DNA of 22,786 nt from a virus. Its lineage: Duplodnaviria > Heunggongvirae > Uroviricota > Caudoviricetes. The notes beneath the pieces were generated by a model. That model had not been told where the DNA came from, made no database searches, and was given only the letters and a program-made list of their open reading frames with translations. Made by a program: the position numbers and the translations under genes. Location of the stretch: positions 1 to 22,786 of IMG/VR virus record IMGVR_UViG_2547132415_000008; one strand, written 5' to 3'. Below are positions 1,975-16,315 of this stretch, in pieces. The stretch's first letter is position 1. Every line of letters starts with the position of its first letter.

Positions 1975-2224
1975 AGTTATCCCACCAGACAGCGAAACGA
2001 TGAACGGGATTTTTGCAGAGATTGAACGTAAATATGCGCATCAGCCGTTGCGCCAAAAGTTATCGATGAAATGCAACGCGAAGCGGCGCGCCTTGTACGG
2101 CGAGCGACAAACACGAAGGTTACGTTCGTTCGGGACTGACATTACAGAAGCTCCTTTGATAAGGGGCTTCGATAATGTCACTAAGAGGAAAAATTCATGG
2201 CAAAACCGGACTGGGAGGCCATAG
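1955..2224 (+). CDS. Hypothetical small protein between lysis and packaging modules (weak call)
   Basis: ORF 1928..2224 in the track starts at TTG; in-frame ATGs at 1955 and 2000. No good ribosome-binding site; overlaps the Rz1 end and the terS start. May be non-coding. Confidence 0.2.
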   Translation: MARLNVEVIPPDSETMNGIFAEIERKYAHQPLRQKLSMKCNAKRRALYGERQTRRLRSFGTDITEAPLIRGFDNVTKRKNSWQNRTGRP

Positions 2225-2946
2225 AATCGGCATACCGGGCCGGAGTCCTTAGCCTCCGTGATATAGGCGAGAAATACGGCGTAACAGAAGGGGCTATCAG
2301 GAAGAGGGCTAAAAAGCTTGGTTGGGTACGCAGTGGCGGTACGCAGGTTTGCAAAAATGGTACGCAAAAAAGAAAAGTGCGTACCAGCAGAAAGCCTGCC
2401 ATTACTGGCCTTACACAAAAAGGTACGCAACCAAAAACAGAAGCTACACCGGATACGAAACCGATACGCGGAATGCGTACCGATCCCCCGACTAACCCAT
2501 TCCAACCCGGTAACCAGCAGGCATTAAAACACGGTGGTTATGCCCGTCGCCTTCTGCTCAAAGATGAGGTGATAGAGGACGCTAAAGCGTTGACGCTCGA
2601 GGACGAATTATTTCGCCTTCGTGCTAACAACCTTGTCGCTGCAGAGAATATTGGTCGGTGGCTGGTGTCGCTGGAAGATGCTAATGGGGACCAGGAAAGG
2701 AAGATGCTGATGGAAAATATCAGCGCCGCCGAGAAAGCAATGATGCGCAATACAGTTCGTATTGAGTCCATCGTTGGCACGCTTGCGACGGTAGGAAAAA
2801 TATTTGCTGATACAGCCTACCGCAAGGCCGCCACTGATAAGGTGTCTCTGGAGGCTGATCGTCTTCGCCGTGATGCAGGTATTGATGATGGCAATGGAGA
2901 GCGTGACCTCAATGACTTCTACTCTGACATCCAAACCGACGCTTAA
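2197..2946 (+). CDS. Terminase small subunit (N-terminal helix-turn-helix DNA-binding domain)
   Basis: Strong RBS AGAGGA 7 nt upstream of ATG 2197, with an in-frame stop just before it. N-terminal LSLRDIGEKYGVTEGAIRKRAKKLGW is HTH-like. Located directly upstream of the large terminase. Confidence 0.8.
   Translation: MAKPDWEAIESAYRAGVLSLRDIGEKYGVTEGAIRKRAKKLGWVRSGGTQVCKNGTQKRKVRTSRKPAITGLTQKGTQPKTEATPDTKPIRGMRTDPPTNPFQPGNQQALKHGGYARRLLLKDEVIEDAKALTLEDELFRLRANNLVAAENIGRWLVSLEDANGDQERKMLMENISAAEKAMMRNTVRIESIVGTLATVGKIFADTAYRKAATDKVSLEADRLRRDAGIDDGNGERDLNDFYSDIQTDA
2325..2481. repeat. Cluster of six copies of the 8-bp motif GGTACGCA / TGCGTACC inside the small terminase gene; candidate pac or terminase recognition site
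   Basis: Read directly: GGTACGCA at 2325, 2338, 2359 and 2422; reverse complement TGCGTACC at 2378 and 2474. Encodes a repeated GTQ-containing basic linker. Confidence 0.5.
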
Positions 2947-4315
2947 TCCGGCTTTACGTAGTTTCTGGACTACGCGGGCACGTAACAAAGTGCTTTATGG
3001 TGGCCGGTCATCGTCAAAATCATGGGATGCCGCTGGCATTGCCATATTTCTGTCGAATAAATACACTCTGCGTTTTTGTTGTGCCCGTCAGATCCAGAAC
3101 AAAATCGAAGAGTCGGTGTATACCCTGCTCAAAATTCAGATAGACAGGTTTGGCCTGCGGCACCGTTTCCGTATTCTGAACAACAAAATCATTAACCGGG
3201 TTACTGGCTCGGAATTTGTTTTTTATGGATTATGGCGCAACATCGAAGAAATTAAGTCACTGGAGGGGATCGATGTGTTGTGGCTGGAAGAAGCCCACGC
3301 ACTGACGGAATACCAGTGGAAAATTCTGGAGCCAACGATCCGTAAAGAGGGGTCGGAATGCTGGTTCATATTCAACCCCGGACTTGTTACTGATTTCGTC
3401 TGGCGCAACTTCGTTGTTGATCCGCCCGAAGGCACTCTCATCCGCAAAATTAACTATGACGAAAATCCGTTTCTGTCTGACACCATGCTTAAGGTTATCG
3501 ACGCGGCGCGACGCCGTGATCCGGATGGTTTTAAACATGTGTATGAGGGCGTTCCGGAGTCTGATGATGATGCGGCAATCATCAAACTGTCCTGGATAGA
3601 AGCCGCAGTGGATGCGCACAAAACGTTAAATTTCGAACCCAGTGGAAGAAAGCGTATTGGCTTTGACGTGGCTGACAGTGGTACAGATAAGTGCGCTAAC
3701 GTTTACCGTCACGGATCCGTTGTTTTCTGGGCCGACGAATGGAAGGCCAAAGAAGATGAATTACTGAAGAGCTGCCAGCGTACTTATCAGGCGGCGCTGG
3801 AGCGTGAAGCAGATATTGTTTACGACTCTATCGGTGTTGGTGCGTCTGCCGGTGCTAAATTCTCTGAAATTAACGCTGACCGGAAGAGCGAGAATGCATA
3901 CGCGAGACGAGTGAATTACCAGAGGTTTAACGCCGGTGCTGGTGTGCATGAGCCAGATGACGAATACAACGGCATCCCCAACAAAGACTTTTTCGCAAAT
4001 CTTAAGGCTCAGGCATGGTGGCTGGTGGCTGACCGTTTCAGAAATACGTTTAACGCCATTAACAACGGAGAACAGTATCCTGTGGATGAGCTGATCAGCA
4101 TAGATTCTAGTTGTCCGTTGCTTGAAAAGCTGAAACTGGAACTGACAACACCTCATCGCGATTTTGACCGTAACGGACGTGTGATGGTCGAAAGTAAAAA
4201 AGACCTCGCAAAACGCGAGATACCGTCACCAAACGTTGCTGACGCATTCATTATGGCCTTCGCGCCAATTGATACATCGCTGGATATCTGGGAACAGCTG
4301 GGGAGACAGGCCTGA
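2894..4315 (+). CDS. Terminase large subunit (ATPase plus nuclease)
   Basis: Walker A-like YGGRSSSKSWD near the N-terminus; acidic nuclease-type motifs downstream; size about 470 aa. Start uncertain (ATG 2894 or 2912; the track ORF begins at 2804), overlapping the terS 3' end. Stop overlaps the portal start (TGATG). Confidence 0.85.
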   Translation: MESVTSMTSTLTSKPTLNPALRSFWTTRARNKVLYGGRSSSKSWDAAGIAIFLSNKYTLRFCCARQIQNKIEESVYTLLKIQIDRFGLRHRFRILNNKIINRVTGSEFVFYGLWRNIEEIKSLEGIDVLWLEEAHALTEYQWKILEPTIRKEGSECWFIFNPGLVTDFVWRNFVVDPPEGTLIRKINYDENPFLSDTMLKVIDAARRRDPDGFKHVYEGVPESDDDAAIIKLSWIEAAVDAHKTLNFEPSGRKRIGFDVADSGTDKCANVYRHGSVVFWADEWKAKEDELLKSCQRTYQAALEREADIVYDSIGVGASAGAKFSEINADRKSENAYARRVNYQRFNAGAGVHEPDDEYNGIPNKDFFANLKAQAWWLVADRFRNTFNAINNGEQYPVDELISIDSSCPLLEKLKLELTTPHRDFDRNGRVMVESKKDLAKREIPSPNVADAFIMAFAPIDTSLDIWEQLGRQA

Positions 4316-5781
4316 TGGCACGAAACAAACAAGCCCTGCGGCGAACTGCGCAGGCCACAGCTGATGGTTATGAGAATTTTATTGCCCGCGTAGGGATGCA
4401 GACACCTAACCAGCACTCAGCATCCACCTACCGGGCTAATTTCACCAGTCGTAACCGCATGCTGGTGGAATGGTCCTATCGTTCGTCCTGGATCATCGGC
4501 GAAGCGGTCGATGCTATCCCGGATGATATGACCCGCAAAGGCATTCGCATCACTTCGGAAATTGATGCAAAAGATCGCGGCATTCTCGAATCACAACTGG
4601 ATGAGTTGCAAATCTGGGATGCGCTGAATGACGTGCTGAAATGGTCGCGCCTCTACGGCGGCGCGGTGGGTTTCATCATGATTGAGGGGCAGGCACCAAT
4701 GACCCCGCTGCGACCCGAAACCATCGGTAAGGGCAAGTTTAAGGGGATTCTCCCGCTCGACCGCTGGATGATTGACCCGGTACTGACCCGCCGCATTAAA
4801 GATATGGGGCCGGACCTGGGTAAACCTGAGTTTTACGATGTGGTGACCACAGCAACGGGAATTCCTGCCTGGCGCATTCATCACAGTCGCCTGATTCGCT
4901 TTGATGGCGTCACGCTGCCATTTCAGCAGAAGATGACCGAGAACGAATGGGGAATGTCGGTTGTAGAGCGTATCTGGGATCGTCTTACCGCGTTCGACAG
5001 CGCTACTGTCGGCGCGGCGCAGCTGGTCTACAAGGCGCATCTGCGCACCTACAGCGTGGAGAAGCTACGCGAGCTTATCGCACTTGGTGGTCCTGCGTAT
5101 GAAGCGTTGCTGAAGAATATCGACCTGATTCGACAGTTCCAGAGCAATGAAGGTATGACGCTCATGGACTCGCGGGATAAGTTTGAAACGCATCAGTACA
5201 GCTTCAGTGGTCTGGATGACATCCTTTCGCAGTTTGCAGAACAGATTAGTGGCGCTGTTGGTATCCCACTGGTGCGGTTGTTCGGACAGTCCCCGAAAGG
5301 ATTTTCTACCGGCGATGCAGACCTTGCCAACTATTACGACCGGGTAAGCTCGTTACAGGAGAGGCGTTTACGTCTTCCGGTGCGGCGGATACTGGACATC
5401 ATGCATCGTTCGGAGCTTGGCAAGCCGCTGCCGGACGATTTCACGTTTGAGTTTAACCCGCTCTGGCAAATGTCTGATGTCGATCGCTCAACGGTGGCGT
5501 TAAACACTACCAACGCAATCAGTACGGCGCTGGGTGATGGTCTGATGACACTGAAAGCCGCTATGACTGATTTGCGCGAAAATTCTGACGTAACCGGCAT
5601 CGGGGCATCCATTACCGACGAGGACATCGAGAATGCCGAAGATGAAGCGCCGCCCGGCATCGGCGAATCTGATGACGAACCGCAGGAACCGTCAGGCGGA
5701 AATCCGCTATCGAACCAGCCTACGCAGGATAGCGCGGGCGGTCGGAGACATCGTAAATGGTCGCTACGATGGTTCAAATGA
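4315..5781 (+). CDS. Portal protein
   Basis: 488 aa immediately after terL with coupled start and GGGGAGACAGG upstream. Acidic C-terminal tail (DEDIENAEDEAPPGIGESDDEPQEP) typical of portals. Position and size. Confidence 0.8.
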   Translation: MARNKQALRRTAQATADGYENFIARVGMQTPNQHSASTYRANFTSRNRMLVEWSYRSSWIIGEAVDAIPDDMTRKGIRITSEIDAKDRGILESQLDELQIWDALNDVLKWSRLYGGAVGFIMIEGQAPMTPLRPETIGKGKFKGILPLDRWMIDPVLTRRIKDMGPDLGKPEFYDVVTTATGIPAWRIHHSRLIRFDGVTLPFQQKMTENEWGMSVVERIWDRLTAFDSATVGAAQLVYKAHLRTYSVEKLRELIALGGPAYEALLKNIDLIRQFQSNEGMTLMDSRDKFETHQYSFSGLDDILSQFAEQISGAVGIPLVRLFGQSPKGFSTGDADLANYYDRVSSLQERRLRLPVRRILDIMHRSELGKPLPDDFTFEFNPLWQMSDVDRSTVALNTTNAISTALGDGLMTLKAAMTDLRENSDVTGIGASITDEDIENAEDEAPPGIGESDDEPQEPSGGNPLSNQPTQDSAGGRRHRKWSLRWFK

Positions 5782-6406
5782 CAGTATCACGGAAATTATT
5801 GAGGCGCTGGAACGCTACAGTGAAATCATCACCCCCTGGGCGACAAAGGTCGCGGAAAACTTTACTGCGGACCTAACCCGGCAGAACGAGAAAGTTTGGC
5901 GGCAACACAGCAAGAACATCAGTCGCGAGCTCCGCAATCTTGTGGAAAGCGCTCCTGTGGGCCAGGTGATGCAATCCATCATCGCCGAACAGGTCAAGTA
6001 CATCAAATCGCTCCCCCTCGAGGCGGCTGACAGGGTGTACGACATCCAGAATCGGGCGACAGAAGCTGTTGTGACCGGTGGGAGAGCAGAATATTTTGCT
6101 AAAGAAATAGCCGCATCGGGTGATATAGCAAAGTCCAGAGCTGACCTGATTGCCCGTACTGAACTTGGACGTGCAACCGGCGCGCTGGATCAGGCGCGTG
6201 CGCTGTCAATTGGTTCGAATGGTTATATCTGGCGTACAGCCGAAGATGGTGACGTCAGGCATTCTCATCGGGAAATGGAAGGTAAATTTGTCGAATGGGG
6301 CAAACCTCCAACGCTTGACGGCATGACCGGTCACGCTGGCGAGCTCCCGAATTGTCGCTGTTATAAAGAAATCGTTTTTCCCACCTCCCAATCTTATCCC
6401 GCCTGA
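5633..6406 (+). CDS. Head morphogenesis protein (SPP1 gp7 / Mu F-like)
   Basis: 257 aa following the portal; basic N-terminus, and the conserved-looking C-terminus SNGYIWRTAEDGDVRHSHREMEGK resembles minor head protein family signatures from memory. The start overlaps the portal by about 149 nt; a later start at 5642 or 5672 is possible. Confidence 0.65.
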   Translation: MPKMKRRPASANLMTNRRNRQAEIRYRTSLRRIARAVGDIVNGRYDGSNDSITEIIEALERYSEIITPWATKVAENFTADLTRQNEKVWRQHSKNISRELRNLVESAPVGQVMQSIIAEQVKYIKSLPLEAADRVYDIQNRATEAVVTGGRAEYFAKEIAASGDIAKSRADLIARTELGRATGALDQARALSIGSNGYIWRTAEDGDVRHSHREMEGKFVEWGKPPTLDGMTGHAGELPNCRCYKEIVFPTSQSYPA

Positions 6407-11207: not shown

Positions 11208-12353
11208 ATGGCACAGGGCTTGCCTGTATCAAACGTTGTTAATGTTGATGTGATCATGTCGCCGCGTGCAGCATCAGGGCGAAATTTTGGTGCATTACTC
11301 ATTCTCGGCCCGTCCACAATCATTCCGGTAAGTGAGCGCATTCGTCGTTATTCTGCCGCGGAAGATATTGGAAAAGATTTTGGCGTGGAATCACCAGAAT
11401 ATAAGGCTGCGCAGGTGTTTTTCTCACAATCACCGAAACCTCAGGAGGTTTTTGTTGGTCGTTGGGTGAAAACGAAGGGAGACAGCGAACAGGCCACGCC
11501 TGAGACGCTGGAGCAGGCTGTGAATGCCATGCTCGATTATACTTCATGGTATGGGCTGGGGATTGCAGACGATGCAGATATTCCGGATGCAGACTGGCTG
11601 AAAGTGGCTGCGGCGATTGAATCCTCTTCTGTAAGCCGTATTCTGGCGATTACGACAAGCGATGAGAAATGCCTGCAGACTGCATCCAGCGATGATTTGG
11701 CATCAAAACTGAAAACCGCCGGATATTCACGCAGTTTTATTCAATATTCATCGGGTAATAAATACGCTGCGTTATCTGCATTTGGCCTGGCATTCACGGT
11801 TAATTTCAATGGCAGTAATACCGCGATTACGCTCAAGTTTAAGCAGGAGCCGGGTGTCGGGTATGAAACACTGACAGTCAGCCAGGCATCGGCACTTGAT
11901 GCAAAAAACTGCAATGTATTCGTGTACTACCAGAATGATACGGCTATCCTCCAGCAGGGAGTGATGGCTAACGGCGATTTCTTTGATGAACGCCACGGCC
12001 TGGACTGGTTACAGAATTATGTGCAGACCAACCTCTATAACCTGCTTTATACCAGCACCACGAAAGTTCCCCAGACTGAAGCCGGTATTACCCGACTGTT
12101 ATCAAATGTAGAAAAATCACTGGATCAGGCCGTTCAGAATGGACTGATTGCTCCGGGCGTATGGAACGGTGGCGACCTTGGTCAGTTGTCATCAGGTGAC
12201 ACGCTGCCCAAAGGTTATTACGTATACGCCCAGCCGCTGGATGAACAGGCACAATCAGAACGTGAAGCCCGTAAGGCTCCGGTGATTCAGGCTGCAATAA
12301 AACTTGCAGGCGCGGTTCATTACGCTGACGTACAGATTAACGTTGTTCGCTAA
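11208..12353 (+). CDS. Tail sheath protein (contractile tail)
   Basis: 381 aa with RBS GGAGA upstream, followed directly by a 146-aa tube-like gene, a chaperone with frameshift, and a tape measure gene: canonical myovirus order. Confidence 0.7.
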
Positions 12354-12363
12354 GGGGAAGTGA

Positions 12364-12804
12364 ATGTCTACCTATTCTTTTATGGATGTCACTGCGACGC
12401 TGACCGGGCCGACCGGTTCGATTGACCTCGGGTACGGTTCGGCAAGTTCTGAAGAGGGGATTGTGGTTGCGATGGGCGGTCCTAAAAACACCATGACCAT
12501 CGGTGCTGATGGCGAAGTGATGCACAGCCTCCATGCAGATAAAAGCGGGACGATTACCGTTAACCTTCTGAAGACATCACCGACAAATAAAAAATTGTCG
12601 CTGGCGTATAACGCACAGAGCCAGTCTTCTGCCACATGGGGGAATAACGTTATCGTGATCCGCAACAAGGTCAGCGGCGACATCATCACGGCACGCAGTG
12701 TTGCGTTCCAGAAACAACCGGATAACGCCAACGCTAAAACCGGTAATACGATGCCGTGGGTGTTTGACTGCGGCAAGATTGACCAGGTTCTCGGGGAGTT
12801 TTAA
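12364..12804 (+). CDS. Tail tube protein
   Basis: 146 aa, RBS GGGGAAG upstream, between sheath and chaperone genes. Confidence 0.65.
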   Translation: MSTYSFMDVTATLTGPTGSIDLGYGSASSEEGIVVAMGGPKNTMTIGADGEVMHSLHADKSGTITVNLLKTSPTNKKLSLAYNAQSQSSATWGNNVIVIRNKVSGDIITARSVAFQKQPDNANAKTGNTMPWVFDCGKIDQVLGEF

Positions 12805-12807
12805 TAC

Positions 12808-13260
12808 ATGGAATTCGAAATTAAAGGCGTGAAATATCGCGCGGCAAAACTCAGCGTTTTTGACCAGCTGAAAGTGACCCGTAAACTTCTGCCGGTACTG
12901 GCGGGAATGATGTCAGATTTCGGGAGCATTCGCTCCCGTTTGCCTGCTGACGGCAAAATCGACACCGTGAAATTCGAGCAGTTAAAACCGGTGTTTGAAA
13001 CCATGCTCCCGCGTATCGCTGAGGAACTGTCTTCCCTGACCGAAGATGACACCGATGCGATTATTCATCCCTGTCTTGCGGTGGTATCGCGGCGTCATAT
13101 GGACGGATGGGTGCCGGTATTTACCCATGGCGAACTGATGTTTGATGATATTGACTTGCTGGTCATGCTTCATCTGGTGGCGCGGGTGGTCGCCGATTCG
13201 CTGGGAAATTTTTTGCCTACACCCCTTACCAGCACGACGCAGAGCCTGCAACAGGGCTGA
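12808..13260 (+). CDS. Tail assembly chaperone (short form)
   Basis: 150 aa immediately upstream of the tape measure gene; slippery heptamer T TTT TTG near its 3' end; RBS GGGGAG upstream. Confidence 0.65.
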   Translation: MEFEIKGVKYRAAKLSVFDQLKVTRKLLPVLAGMMSDFGSIRSRLPADGKIDTVKFEQLKPVFETMLPRIAEELSSLTEDDTDAIIHPCLAVVSRRHMDGWVPVFTHGELMFDDIDLLVMLHLVARVVADSLGNFLPTPLTSTTQSLQQG

Positions 13261-13457
13261 CGTTTAACAGCCTGCCGGACGGGCTGTCCTACCTTCTCAA
13301 TCCGGTTGACGCCGGGTTAATTCCTTATACAGCACTTAAAGATGGCTCTGTCGATTTGTACGACATTGCTCTCTTAAATGACCATCTGGCGGTAAAAGCG
13401 GATAACCAGCGGCGCATTGAGAAATGGAGAGAGGATAATGAACGCCGAGACTATTAA
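13215..13457 (+). CDS. -1 frameshift extension of the tail assembly chaperone (long form, G-T-like product), 81 codons with no ATG
   Basis: The -1 frame is open from 13215 to TAA at 13455..13457 (AYTPYQHDAEPATGLTFNSLPDGLSYLLNPVDAGLIPYTALKDGSVDLYDIALLNDHLAVKADNQRRIEKWREDNERRDY) and is entered at T TTT TTG (13209..13215). Confidence 0.6.
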   Translation, partial: AYTPYQHDAEPATGLTFNSLPDGLSYLLNPVDAGLIPYTALKDGSVDLYDIALLNDHLAVKADNQRRIEKWREDNERRDY

Positions 13458-15426
13458 AGATTTCCTCGTCTCGCTTGGCTTCAGTGTGGATGATGCAGGA
13501 GCGAAAAAATTCGGTTCTGTCCTCGCCGGTACAACTGCAAATGTCATCAAAATGGGGCTGGCCGTCGAAGGAGCTGCGCTGTCCGTGGTGGCCTTCACGG
13601 CTAAGATCGCCTCCGGTCTGGATAATCTTTACTGGGCGTCACAGCGCACCGGCGCGACAGTCCAGGGAATTCAGTCTATTGGCTATGCGGTTTCGCAGGT
13701 TGGCGGCAGCGTGGACGCTGCGCGATCTTCTCTGGAAAACCTCTCCCGGTTTATTCGTAATAATCCCGGGGCGGAGGGATTTCTGAATCGCCTGGGCGTA
13801 CAGACCCGTGATGCCAGCGGTAACATGCGTGACATGGCCGCTATCTTTACGGGCGTTGGACAGAAACTCAGCAGCATGCCGTATTACCGGGCTAACCAGT
13901 ATGCGCAGATGCTGGGCATTGACGAAAATACCCTTATGGCGATGCGCCGGGGTGTGGGTGGCTTCTCCGGGCAGTACAGCGCAATGGCGAAAGCTATCGG
14001 CTTCAATGCTGACGAGGCGGCCAGAAGCTCCAACAAATTTATGACCTCCCTGCGTGAGTTTAGCGCGATGGCAGGCATGGCCCGTGACAAAATCGGCTCT
14101 AATCTTGCGGGTGGGCTTGCAGGTTCGCTGGACACCCTGCGCCGCCATATCCTGGACAACTTCCCTCGTATCGAGCAGACCCTGACGAAAGCCATAAAAG
14201 GCATTCTGGCGCTCGGGGATATTATCGGGCGGCTGTTCTTCAGACTGATTGAGGGGACATCAGGCCTTATCACCTGGTGGCAATCGCTGGATAAGCAAAC
14301 GCGGGAGTTGATCTCGCTGTTTGGCGCACTGACGATTGCGCTGCGCATTCTGAACAGTACGTTCTGGATGTCGCCGGTTGGCCTCATTACCGCGCTGGCG
14401 GCGGGGATTGCCCTCCTGTGGGAGGACTATCAGACCTGGAAGGAAGGCGGCGACAGCCTGATTGACTGGGGCAAGTGGAAACCGGAGGTCGATGCCGCGC
14501 TGAAGATGGTTCGTGACCTTAAAACGACCGTTAACGACCTGGCGAAAGCGCTGGCGAAACTACTCAATATTGACCCCAAATCATGGTCCCTGAAGTGGGA
14601 TTTCAGCAACTTCATCGACCAGATGGGCGAATTCAGCAAAATGCTGAACATGATCGCCGACCTGCTCAACGCTATCAAAGATGGCCGCTGGGCTGATGCC
14701 GTCAGCATCGGCAAACAGATACTTAATCAGGGCAGCGAAAATCCGTCAGCGATGCCGATGGTTACAGACAGCGCTAACAGTACTGCCGACTGGATTAAAG
14801 AGCACTGGGGATTCGATCCCCGCAGTGTGGGCCGGACGGTACGCGGCTGGTTTGGTGATGATGAGCCGGAACAACATGCACAGGCTACGAAACGAGGAGA
14901 ACGGAATAACAATCCGGGAAACCTTAATTTTGCTGGTCAGGCGGGGGCTTCTCTTGAACGCCCGGGCGGGCGATTTGCCAGATTCGAAACTGCCTTTGAT
15001 GGATTACGGGCTCTTGCTCGTCAGTTAATGTTGTACGCCGGACGGGGAATAAACAGCGTGGAGAAAATTGTCTCTACCTGGGCGCCTGCGTCTGATAATA
15101 ACAACACAACTGCGTATATCAGGGCTGTATCGCAACGACTGGGAGTGGATCCCCGGGCTGCCCTGAATATGAGCGATCCGCAAACCATGTCAGCATTGAT
15201 GAGCAGCATTATCCAGCATGAGAATGGAAGAAATATCTATTCCCGAGAGCTGATTAATAAGGCTGCCGTGGCGGGAATTAGTGGCAAAGTGACAGAGGTT
15301 AACCAGCAAAATACCTACCACATTTACGGTGGCGGAGATCCGCACGCTGTCGGTAATGAGGTTGCACGTCGGCAACAGTCTGCAAATGCTCAGGTCATGC
15401 GAAGTAATCAGGTGAGGGTGGGTTAG
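13438..15426 (+). CDS. Tail tape measure protein
   Basis: ATG 13438 preceded by GGAGAGAGG (the track ORF starts at 13417). 663 aa; a long Ala/Leu/Gly-rich helical protein downstream of the frameshifted chaperone; hydrophobic central segment; distinct C-terminal domain. Confidence 0.75.
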   Translation: MNAETIKDFLVSLGFSVDDAGAKKFGSVLAGTTANVIKMGLAVEGAALSVVAFTAKIASGLDNLYWASQRTGATVQGIQSIGYAVSQVGGSVDAARSSLENLSRFIRNNPGAEGFLNRLGVQTRDASGNMRDMAAIFTGVGQKLSSMPYYRANQYAQMLGIDENTLMAMRRGVGGFSGQYSAMAKAIGFNADEAARSSNKFMTSLREFSAMAGMARDKIGSNLAGGLAGSLDTLRRHILDNFPRIEQTLTKAIKGILALGDIIGRLFFRLIEGTSGLITWWQSLDKQTRELISLFGALTIALRILNSTFWMSPVGLITALAAGIALLWEDYQTWKEGGDSLIDWGKWKPEVDAALKMVRDLKTTVNDLAKALAKLLNIDPKSWSLKWDFSNFIDQMGEFSKMLNMIADLLNAIKDGRWADAVSIGKQILNQGSENPSAMPMVTDSANSTADWIKEHWGFDPRSVGRTVRGWFGDDEPEQHAQATKRGERNNNPGNLNFAGQAGASLERPGGRFARFETAFDGLRALARQLMLYAGRGINSVEKIVSTWAPASDNNNTTAYIRAVSQRLGVDPRAALNMSDPQTMSALMSSIIQHENGRNIYSRELINKAAVAGISGKVTEVNQQNTYHIYGGGDPHAVGNEVARRQQSANAQVMRSNQVRVG

Positions 15427-16013
15427 TGGATATTCTCTCTACACTTTTTCATCAGCAGAGCAGAAAAATAGGAATGATTGTTCCCAGTGTTGTTATTTCA
15501 GAGAAGCATACAGATATGCTTGAAATAACCGAGCATCCGGTAGAGGTCGGGGCCGCTGTCGCTGATCATGCCTATAAAAAACCGTCAGAAGTGGTGATGG
15601 AGGTTGGTTTCGCCGGTGGCGGCGCATTGCTGGATTTTGCCAGTAACCTGACGGCTACCAGCCTGCTCGGCCTGAGTCCTCAGCAGACGTATCAGGAGCT
15701 ACTGGATCTGCAGGAAAGCCGTATCCCCTTCGATGTGGTAACCGGTAAACGGCTGTACAGCAACATGTTGATCCGGGCGCTGGAAGTGACGACGGACAAG
15801 ACAACCGAAAACGTCCTGTCCGCCGTCCTCACCCTGAGGGAGGTCATTATCTCCCGGACACAGCAGATTACCGTCGCGGATAAAACCAACATGAAGGAAG
15901 GGGCCAGCACGTCGGCGGTACAGAACAGCGGCAACAAAACCACAAAACCTCCAGATACTTCACTGCTGAAAAGCATCACGGGTAACGTGGCGTCATTACT
16001 GGGGGGCGGCTAA
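15426..16013 (+). CDS. Tail/baseplate-associated protein (hypothetical), probable GTG start
   Basis: GTG at 15426 overlaps the tape measure stop (TAGTG) with GAGGGTGGG upstream; 195 aa. An alternative ATG at 15474 has no spacer after its RBS. Confidence 0.45.
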   Translation: MDILSTLFHQQSRKIGMIVPSVVISEKHTDMLEITEHPVEVGAAVADHAYKKPSEVVMEVGFAGGGALLDFASNLTATSLLGLSPQQTYQELLDLQESRIPFDVVTGKRLYSNMLIRALEVTTDKTTENVLSAVLTLREVIISRTQQITVADKTNMKEGASTSAVQNSGNKTTKPPDTSLLKSITGNVASLLGGG

Positions 16014-16315
16014 TGACAATTCAGGAAATTCCGCTGACAGCGGACAACCAGCAGTTCAGCATCGTCCTGGGTGGTGTCACCTGGCGGATTAGCATCATAT
16101 GGCGCGATCTGTACTGGATTATGGACCTGCAGAACGACAGAGGGGAGCCGGTAATCTCCGGTATTCCTCTCGTCACTGGTGCTGACCTGCTGGCGCAGTA
16201 CGCCTGTATGGGGCTTGGTTTTAAGCTGGTGGTGGTCTGTGATGACAACACACAGGATTACCCCACAAAAACTGACCTGGGCGGTCGCAGCCATTTACTG
16301 GTATCAACGGAGTAA
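16013..16315 (+). CDS. Small tail/baseplate protein (hypothetical)
   Basis: 100 aa; start overlaps previous stop (TAATG). Confidence 0.45.
   Translation: MTIQEIPLTADNQQFSIVLGGVTWRISIIWRDLYWIMDLQNDRGEPVISGIPLVTGADLLAQYACMGLGFKLVVVCDDNTQDYPTKTDLGGRSHLLVSTE

Follow-up and report, generated by a model that had tools for sequence, protein, structure and literature searches.

A probable -1 frameshift gives a long form of the tail assembly chaperone in a SEN34-like temperate myophage of Escherichia coli

The tail assembly chaperone gene that begins at position 12808 of the stretch of phage DNA analysed here (22,786 nucleotides, hereafter the window) very probably belongs to a SEN34-like (Brunovirus-type) temperate myophage or prophage of E. 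coli, and a long form of its product would arise by a -1 frameshift near its 3′ end. This assignment draws on sequence comparison, namely the anatomy of the locus, the family assignments of its two reading frames, the conservation of slip site and frame among relatives, and the occurrence of in-frame fusions elsewhere; from it we infer that the slippage is ribosomal. The mechanism is a textbook one and the frameshift has already been annotated in homologous genes, and the window is an ordinary, well-supported further case.

The chaperone gene lies among the genes for the contractile tail, which are arranged as follows.

11208..12353, + strand: tail sheath gene (phrog_205, DUF3383)
12364..12804, + strand: tube gene (KPP10_Orf10)
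12808..13260, + strand: short tail assembly chaperone gene (G-like, TAC-N), 150 aa, with stop TGA at 13258..13260
13438..15426, + strand: tape measure protein gene, 662 aa (phrog_2276, E 4.6e-283)

The product of 12808..13260 matches Pfam Phage_TAC_15 (2e-30) and phrog_1688 'tail assembly chaperone' (1.8e-64). As in G/GT-type systems, the upstream open reading frame (ORF) is a tail assembly chaperone, and its location, in the order sheath, tube, chaperone, tape measure protein, is that of the G/GT type. Elsewhere the window has the character of a phage late region, with genes for lysozyme, large terminase, portal, Mu-F-like protein, capsid, and baseplate. ATG 13438 is the likely start of the tape measure gene, as it is preceded by GGAGAGAGGA; the ORF listing offers an alternative in-frame TTG upstream (13417), and the start assigned by PGAP in a 99% identical E. 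coli record corresponds to 13438 of the window. The nearest phage records are the E. coli phages vB_EcoM-689R2 and relatives (97%), followed by Yersinia phage YP3 (81%) and Salmonella phage SEN34 (genus Brunovirus; 80%), and 346 of 5,426 complete E. coli genomes contain the region by DNA search.

The elements of the frameshift itself overlap the 3′ end of the chaperone gene and extend into the tape measure gene.

13203..13215, + strand: slippery tract G GGA AAT TTT TTG, three overlapping in-phase heptamers
13203..13209, + strand: heptamer G GGA AAT, in phase
13206..13212, + strand: heptamer A AAT TTT, in phase
13209..13215, + strand: heptamer T TTT TTG, in phase, with TTG as codon 136
13215..13457, + strand: -1 frame extension (T-like part), 80 sense codons, with stop TAA at 13455..13457
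13323..13439, + strand: DUF6889 core, a small helical domain (Pfam PF21829, phrog_4364, model helices)

The zero-frame codons from 13201 read CTG GGA AAT TTT TTG CCT, which puts T TTT TTG in the X XXY YYZ phase. An earlier note, made by a model from the DNA letters, had placed this heptamer at 13209..13215, 15 codons ahead of the chaperone stop, and both the phase and the codon numbers (136 for TTG, 151 for the stop, with 14 sense codons between them) agree with that placement. A slippery heptamer close to the chaperone gene's 3′ end, as expected for the G/GT type, is thus present together with two overlapping heptamers. The latter, G GGA AAT and A AAT TTT, are both in phase and had been overlooked in the earlier note.

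In-phase XXXYYYZ heptamers also occur as background in the window, where the 28 + strand genes contain 21 of them. Outside the tract, these are accompanied by at most 17 open -1 codons, with a single exception at 16001. That heptamer, G GGG GGC, was considered as a second frameshift site and rejected as a chance occurrence, since its -1 frame merely enters the next gene, which has its own ATG; it is absent from SEN34 and YP3.

The -1 frame is free of stops from 13155 to the TAA at 13455..13457. It contains neither ATG nor GTG, and its sole classical start, TTG 13356, lies within the conserved domain. The frame ends 20 nt into the tape measure gene, whose ATG is located in the 3′ end of the extension and whose ribosome-binding site is inside the extension coding sequence. 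The locus therefore has the overlapping -1 ORF, devoid of its own initiation signal and reaching the tape measure gene, that is characteristic of the G/GT type. The earlier description of a -1 frame without ATG that ends at 13457 inside the start of the tape measure gene holds, with 80 sense codons plus the stop. Re-reading of G 13215 gives these 80 sense codons and, with 12808..13215, a fusion of 216 aa; the figure of about 217 aa given before was near in length, the exact size being one residue smaller.

Both parts of the predicted fusion belong to recognized families. The -1 frame matches Pfam DUF6889 (PF21829; E 2.1e-20), at residues 57-95 of the ORF translated from 13155, and phrog_4364 (4e-23). 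When the modelled 216-aa fusion was searched as a whole, Phage_TAC_15 matched residues 6-136 with 103.8 bits (cut-off 22) and DUF6889 matched residues 173-211 with 70.6 bits (cut-off 23.9), so that the two families occur collinearly and each above its gathering score.

Conservation was assessed in 80 fetched loci, one per bacterial species (L004-L083), whose chaperones are 38-90% identical to that of the window; 80 viral contigs and three annotated records served as additional comparison material. The -1 frame holds a homologue of the extension in all fetched loci but two, L040 and L083, both visibly decayed, and the extension is 75-78 aa long in 75 of the 80. Interruption of the -1 frame in related phages, which the earlier note had named as grounds for rejecting the frameshift, is thus not seen in these relatives. 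The borders of the alignments fall at the slip site, where the chaperone stops at residue 136 and the extension starts at residue 1.

Heptamers and codons were counted over 79 distinct species-level loci, whose chaperone identity to the window is 45-90%. An in-phase T TTT TTK is kept in 77 of them (TTTTTTG in 72, TTTTTTT in four, TTTTTTA in one), so that the heptamer and the open -1 frame are both conserved in diverged relatives, as in the G/GT type. Codon choice at the site is strongly constrained: Phe is TTT in 78/78 cases (54% elsewhere in the same genes), Asn is AAT in 73/73 (41%), Leu is TTG in 73/74 (11%), and Gly is GGA in 72/79 (8%); the loci are related and these are counts of non-independent events, but the contrast with flanking codons is clear nonetheless. 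Neighbouring conserved codons vary normally, as exemplified by Asp130 (GAT 42, GAC 34). Where Asn is replaced, the substitutes use GGT, AGT, or GAT, which means that the final T of the codon is kept. Conservation at the synonymous positions of the slip site is therefore far above the codon usage of the same genes.

The frame of codon-position variability changes at the same place. Just upstream of the site, mean nucleotide entropy at the three codon positions is 0.57/0.36/1.13 in frame 0; with the -1 frame as reference, the values are 0.97/0.75/1.31 for the overlap and 0.71/0.60/1.41 downstream of it. The wobble signal thus switches frame at the heptamer, rather than at the chaperone stop or at a later start. 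In one Salmonella locus (L022), the T run is broken (AAT ATT TTG), while G GGA AAT is kept and the -1 ORF with the extension is intact. Gene order, slip-site conservation, and the uninterrupted -1 frame all agree with a G/GT-type -1 frameshift in a contractile-tail chaperone gene, as had been proposed from the window itself.

Fusions of the two domains in a single frame occur in distant relatives. A HMMER search with the extension returned mostly stand-alone ORFs of 40-90 aa, together with several proteins, about 190-210 aa long, with the domain at the C terminus; these directly follow a separate short Phage_TAC_15 gene (L164, L165/L166, L168). These in-frame long proteins themselves match Phage_TAC_15 plus DUF6889, and they are collinear with the window across the modelled junction (SLGNFL-AYTPYQ in the window; SLARFL-AYEPIE and SLARFF-TYAPVP in the natural fusions). 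As the natural fusions stand beside short genes, some lineages make the short and the long form from two genes, and by sequence these two-gene lineages appear to have just the two forms that the frameshift model predicts. Two kinds of match in the same list were set aside. The giant proteins P0135, P0148, and P0180 are PEGA-repeat proteins in which weak repeats were summed, and are spurious; P0121, with a siroheme-synthase-like N terminus joined to DUF6889, is probably a chimeric assembly.

The structure of the long form was predicted with AlphaFold2 for P0001, a 97% identical version in which a run of seven T places the two parts in frame, with an alignment of seven natural fusions; a larger alignment that mixed short and long proteins with extension-only ones was misaligned and left out. 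The model has a mean pLDDT of 81 and a pTM of 0.74. Its chaperone fold resembles the HK97 chaperone, and the last chaperone helix (117-136) ends at the junction. The 10-residue blocks over 141-160 average pLDDT values of 51-52, with residues 145-155 below 50, and a confident small helical domain follows at residues 157-212, with helices 160-168, 175-179, and 184-212 (pLDDT 86-92). The stretch between the two domains corresponds to the following segment of the window.

13215..13271, + strand: probable flexible linker, approximately residues 137-155 (P0001 model; junction at the helix end)

Conservation of this linker is moderate, with the pattern AR(T)P(R)QRDA..P. In the model, the long form is a chaperone with a folded helical domain carried on a flexible linker.

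Elements that might stimulate the slip were sought on both sides of the tract. The earlier note had suggested folding 13216..13300 in search of a downstream RNA structure, and none was found: this segment folds no better than its shuffles (z -0.81), RNAalifold on 80 relatives found no structure (mean z of +1..+60, +0.32), and Rfam has no match. The conserved hairpin or pseudoknot that lies 5-9 nt past the heptamer in the IS3/IS911 and dnaX types therefore has no counterpart here. An 8-bp hairpin at about 13267..13288 was rejected as a stimulator, as it begins 51 nt past the site. Upstream of the tract, one candidate is present.

13184..13190, + strand: candidate upstream Shine-Dalgarno-like stimulator, GGGTGGT (inferred)

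In 69 of 79 loci, the 30 nt upstream of the tract contain a Shine-Dalgarno-like pentamer, mostly GGTGG (in CGG GTG GTN), compared with 10% of 30-nt control windows in the same genes; the pentamer lies 10 or 13 nt ahead of G GGA AAT. Arg in this stretch is encoded by CGG in 52/72 cases vs 19% elsewhere in the same genes. Upstream GGTGG may thus contribute to the slip, although the signal is confounded by the conserved residues R-V-V.

In the mechanism that we propose, most ribosomes would stop at TGA 13258 and give the 150-aa short form, and a minority would slip back by one nucleotide on G GGA AAT TTT TTG (13203..13215), most probably at T TTT TTG, where tRNA-Phe would occupy the P site and tRNA-Leu the A site. 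Reading in the -1 frame would then continue to 13457 and give the 216-aa long form, which would consist of the chaperone domain, a linker of about 20 residues, and the small helical DUF6889 domain. If the analogy with lambda G/GT and P2 E/E+E′ holds, the two forms would both coat the tape measure protein via their common N-terminal domain, and the extension would recruit the tube protein. The slip frequency would set the short:long ratio, with no downstream RNA structure involved.

The junction would show which heptamer is used: a long form with ...SLGNFLAYTPYQHDAEPATGLTFNSLPDGLSYLLNPVDAGLIPYTALK (Leu at residue 136) would point to T TTT TTG, and one with ...SLGNFFAYTPYQ... (Phe at residue 136) to A AAT TTT, to G GGA AAT, or to slippage during transcription. 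A productive slip on A AAT TTT and/or G GGA AAT instead of T TTT TTG, with a long form containing ...GNFFAYTP... and not ...GNFLAYTP..., is an appreciable possibility, albeit one that we hold to be somewhat doubtful. In E. coli reporters, U_UU.U_UU.G is outside the efficient motifs, an A-site UUY shifts better than UUR, and R_RR.U_UU.Y is among the efficient motifs, which favours A AAT TTT (PMC4066793); by this ranking, slip could occur mainly on that heptamer. The retention of GGA at 72/79 against a baseline of 8%, and the classical spacing of 10-13 nt between GGTGG and G GGA AAT, point in the same direction. So do some of the heptamers that more distant phages carry in the corresponding place.

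Acinetobacter Ab105-1phi: G GGA AAT and A AAT TTT
Bordetella IFTN9: G GGA AAT only
Burkholderia Magia: C CCT TTT
Ralstonia PY059YO380: G GGT TTT / T TTT TTC
Providencia PSTCR3: T TTT TTT

Ab105-1phi has only the two upstream heptamers, and both Bordetella IFTN9 and the Salmonella locus with the broken T run have only G GGA AAT, yet the -1 ORF is intact in all three. However, T TTT TTK is the sole heptamer found in nearly all enterobacterial relatives (77/79), the replacement of Asn by Gly, Ser, or Asp (GGT, AGT, GAT) destroys the other two heptamers and leaves T TTT TTK in place, and P2 slips on GGT TTT TTG, where T TTT TTG is the only heptamer. The other heptamers at the homologous position, together with the Salmonella locus, indicate that the position of the slip is conserved and the motif interchangeable. 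A more elaborate reading would take the whole 13-nt composite tract as the conserved unit, with its three slip sites and the Shine-Dalgarno-like GGTGG setting the short:long ratio without RNA structure; the subset retained would vary between lineages (G GGA AAT alone, A AAT TTT, T TTT TTK, or C CCT TTT), and other lineages would have swapped recoding for gene duplication, with a short copy and an in-frame long copy. We consider this unlikely; if true, it would offer a natural series on the tuning of frameshift efficiency and on the gain and loss of recoding.

Slippage on T TTT TTG by the ribosome, which is the reading preferred here, has to be weighed against two explanations that dispense with translational frameshifting. 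RNA polymerase might add one U at the run of six T, so that a fraction of the mRNA with T7 encodes the fusion in frame. The conserved element is indeed a homopolymer run, of six T or of seven where the last base is T, and versions with T7 (P0001) and T5 (P0003) exist in public assemblies; these are most simply explained as homopolymer errors. Efficient transcriptional slippage in bacteria usually requires about 8-9 or more A or T in a row, and the locus has no such long homopolymer: the run is T6 in the window, T7 in a few relatives, and absent in some, as there is no long run in Magia (C CCT TTT) or in Bordetella IFTN9 (G GGA AAT ACT). Moreover, the identical site of P2 is treated as translational in the literature (PMC3091744). 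Transcriptional slippage is accordingly very improbable as the source of the long form.

Least probable of all is that DUF6889 is the product of a separate small gene of 54 aa from CTG (13284 of the window), or of re-initiation past the chaperone stop, with no frameshift at all. Annotation gives reason to entertain it, as PGAP calls a 'DUF6889 family protein' coding sequence (CDS) in hundreds of E. coli genomes and most database entries are the stand-alone ORFs of 40-90 aa described above; the -1 frame has no usable start, and PGAP falls back on CTG. ATG and GTG are absent, however, and the CTG positions lack a Shine-Dalgarno sequence; the CTG at 13257 is not conserved, being TTA in SEN34. In addition, conservation and periodicity in the -1 frame begin at the heptamer, 23 codons 5′ of the PGAP start and 5′ of the chaperone stop, natural fusions carry both domains in frame, and other annotators either leave the region blank or join it as a frameshift product.

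A close parallel among characterized systems is P2 E/E+E′, which shifts at TTTTTTG, likewise without a hairpin (PMC3091744). P2 and the window share an identical T TTT TTG in the same phase, near the chaperone 3′ end and between the tube and tape measure genes, and the P2 -1 extension likewise ends a few nucleotides inside the tape measure gene. In the P2 record, GGT TTT TTG was confirmed to be in phase. The two differ in the number of heptamers (one in P2, GGT TTT TTG; three overlapping in the window) and of zero-frame codons after the site (6 in P2, 14 in the window); the P2 frameshift has been demonstrated experimentally, whereas that of the window is predicted from sequence comparison. The proteins also differ, with P2 E assigned to Phage_TAC_7 and E′ to Phage_P2_GpE, in contrast to Phage_TAC_15 plus DUF6889 for the window fusion. 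BLASTP of the window extension against P2 E′ gave no alignment; homology between the two was rejected on this result and on the different Pfam families, the similar ending (WRE...) being no evidence for it. The pair in the window thus appears to work like P2 E/E+E′ from outside the P2 protein family.

Lambda G/GT resembles the window in having a two-form chaperone made by a -1 slip. The lambda slip site is G GGA AAG, from which G GGA AAT of the window differs in the last base only. Lambda has a non-contractile tail and chaperones of other protein families, whereas the partner of the window extension would, by analogy, be the tube protein of a sheathed tail. PMC5009743 describes the proportion of the lambda forms and what they do in tail assembly.

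Homologues of the window pair have been annotated as frameshifted before. Klebsiella phage Mulock (MN098327) has a 'tape measure chaperone frameshift product' that is a homologue with 64.5% identity over the extension (tblastn) and the same GGGAAATTTTTTG tract as the window. Burkholderia phage Magia (MT701587) has a homologue with 42% identity over the extension (tblastn), with C CCT TTT at the homologous position. Both deposits carry a joined frameshift CDS that was annotated by prediction, and, according to its announcement, a programmed frameshift was identified in Magia (PMC7883833). In the Vandenendeviridae and Andersonviridae (phage Adele), the usual annotation places a hypothetical gene 3′ of the chaperone gene; the region has been re-read as a -1 frameshift extension, given that its -1 frame is free of interruptions and that a T-rich motif is conserved (PMC12846349). 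The Adele motif is GTTTTT and the phage families are other than that of the window, but the annotation situation is alike.

Within the lineage of the window, the joined CDS is absent from the E. coli, SEN34, and YP3 records. The SEN34 and YP3 records have a 177-nt gap where the extension lies, and RefSeq E. coli records, of which one was inspected closely, give the 'DUF6889 family protein' a CDS of its own that begins at CTG and is sometimes named 'NTP pyrophosphohydrolase'. No frameshift is mentioned in the SEN34 paper, and the papers searched contain no mention of DUF6889 or Phage_TAC_15. The RefSeq, SEN34, and YP3 annotations should become one chaperone gene with a joined frameshift product, and a role can be assigned to DUF6889 as the C-terminal (T-like) domain of long-form Phage_TAC_15 chaperones. 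SEN34-like temperate myophages are one more lineage for the textbook mechanism, and their relatives provide a modest comparative series of alternative slip motifs, together with a frameshift-free, two-gene version.

Distant metagenomic relatives carry two tandem Phage_TAC_15 genes, the second of which is fused in frame to DUF6889, at the following loci:

L164, 2499..3630, tandem Phage_TAC_15 genes
L165, 2489..3630, tandem Phage_TAC_15 genes
L166, 577..1718, tandem Phage_TAC_15 genes
L168, 231..1285, tandem Phage_TAC_15 genes

The two paralogues are strongly diverged from each other, and in L164–L166 no obvious tape measure gene is present 3′ of the tandem chaperone genes. The Phage_TAC_15 and Phage_TAC_15–DUF6889 genes constitute a short/long chaperone pair that is encoded without a frameshift.

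In the window, the −1 extension ends slightly further downstream than in the aligned relatives. The −1 frame codon at 13446..13448 is CGA, whereas the aligned sequences of E. coli 22KM0354, Salmonella phage SEN34, and Yersinia phage YP3 have TGA, and the extension is consequently three codons longer (…NERRDY), reaching TAA at 13455..13457. In the E. coli record NZ_CP151071.1 (L001), the RefSeq (PGAP) annotation treats the extension as a gene of its own, encoding a "DUF6889 family protein" of 54 aa, the start of which is a CTG codon at the equivalent window position:

Window 13284..13448 (L001 2977..3141), PGAP DUF6889 CDS of NZ_CP151071.1

The same ORF is labeled "NTP pyrophosphohydrolase" in some records. 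Both labels look like annotation artefacts that arise where the frameshift is unrecognised.

Certain database sequences differ from the window in the T run of the slippery tract. In the 213-aa protein P0001 (16 member sequences), the T run is longer by one base, resulting in an in-frame fusion, and in the 152-aa protein P0003 (24 members), it is shorter by one base, resulting in a +1 frame tail. Both derive from public read-set assemblies and are, apart from T-run length, near-identical to the chaperone gene of the window. These length differences are most simply explained as homopolymer sequencing errors; the alternative is that they reflect real length heterogeneity of the T run. A different variant occurs in Salmonella enterica strain s1 (L022 1860..2150), in which the T run is interrupted (AAT ATT TTG), whereas G GGA AAT and the entire −1 extension are preserved. 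The interruption is either a recent inactivating mutation in a prophage or a sign that G GGA AAT is sufficient alone.

The window (13184..13192) and phage P2 (L169 670..677) share an octamer, GGTGGTCG, 5′ of their slippery sites, even though their proteins are unrelated. The distance from the end of the octamer is 10 nt to G GGA AAT in the window and 1 nt to T TTT TTG in P2. The octamer may be a Shine–Dalgarno-like stimulator, or may be a coincidence of Val-Val codons.

A further in-phase heptamer, G GGG GGC, is present at 16001..16007 in the Dit-like gene (15426..16013), one codon 5′ of the stop, and its −1 frame is that of the next gene (16013..16315, Pam3_gp18-like). Neither SEN34 nor YP3 conserves this heptamer, and its occurrence is therefore probably due to chance.

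Within the C-terminal third of the tape measure protein (13438..15426) lies a region that resembles lytic transglycosylases (phrog_873 and phrog_7182, residues ~474–650), and "lytic transglycosylase" is the PGAP name for the entire protein. As for ORF calling, the ORF at 2197..2946, upstream of the large terminase gene (2804..4315, TTG start at 2804), overlaps that gene at length, and the portal gene (4315..5781) has a long overlap with the Mu-F-like gene (5633..6406). The real starts are probably located further downstream.
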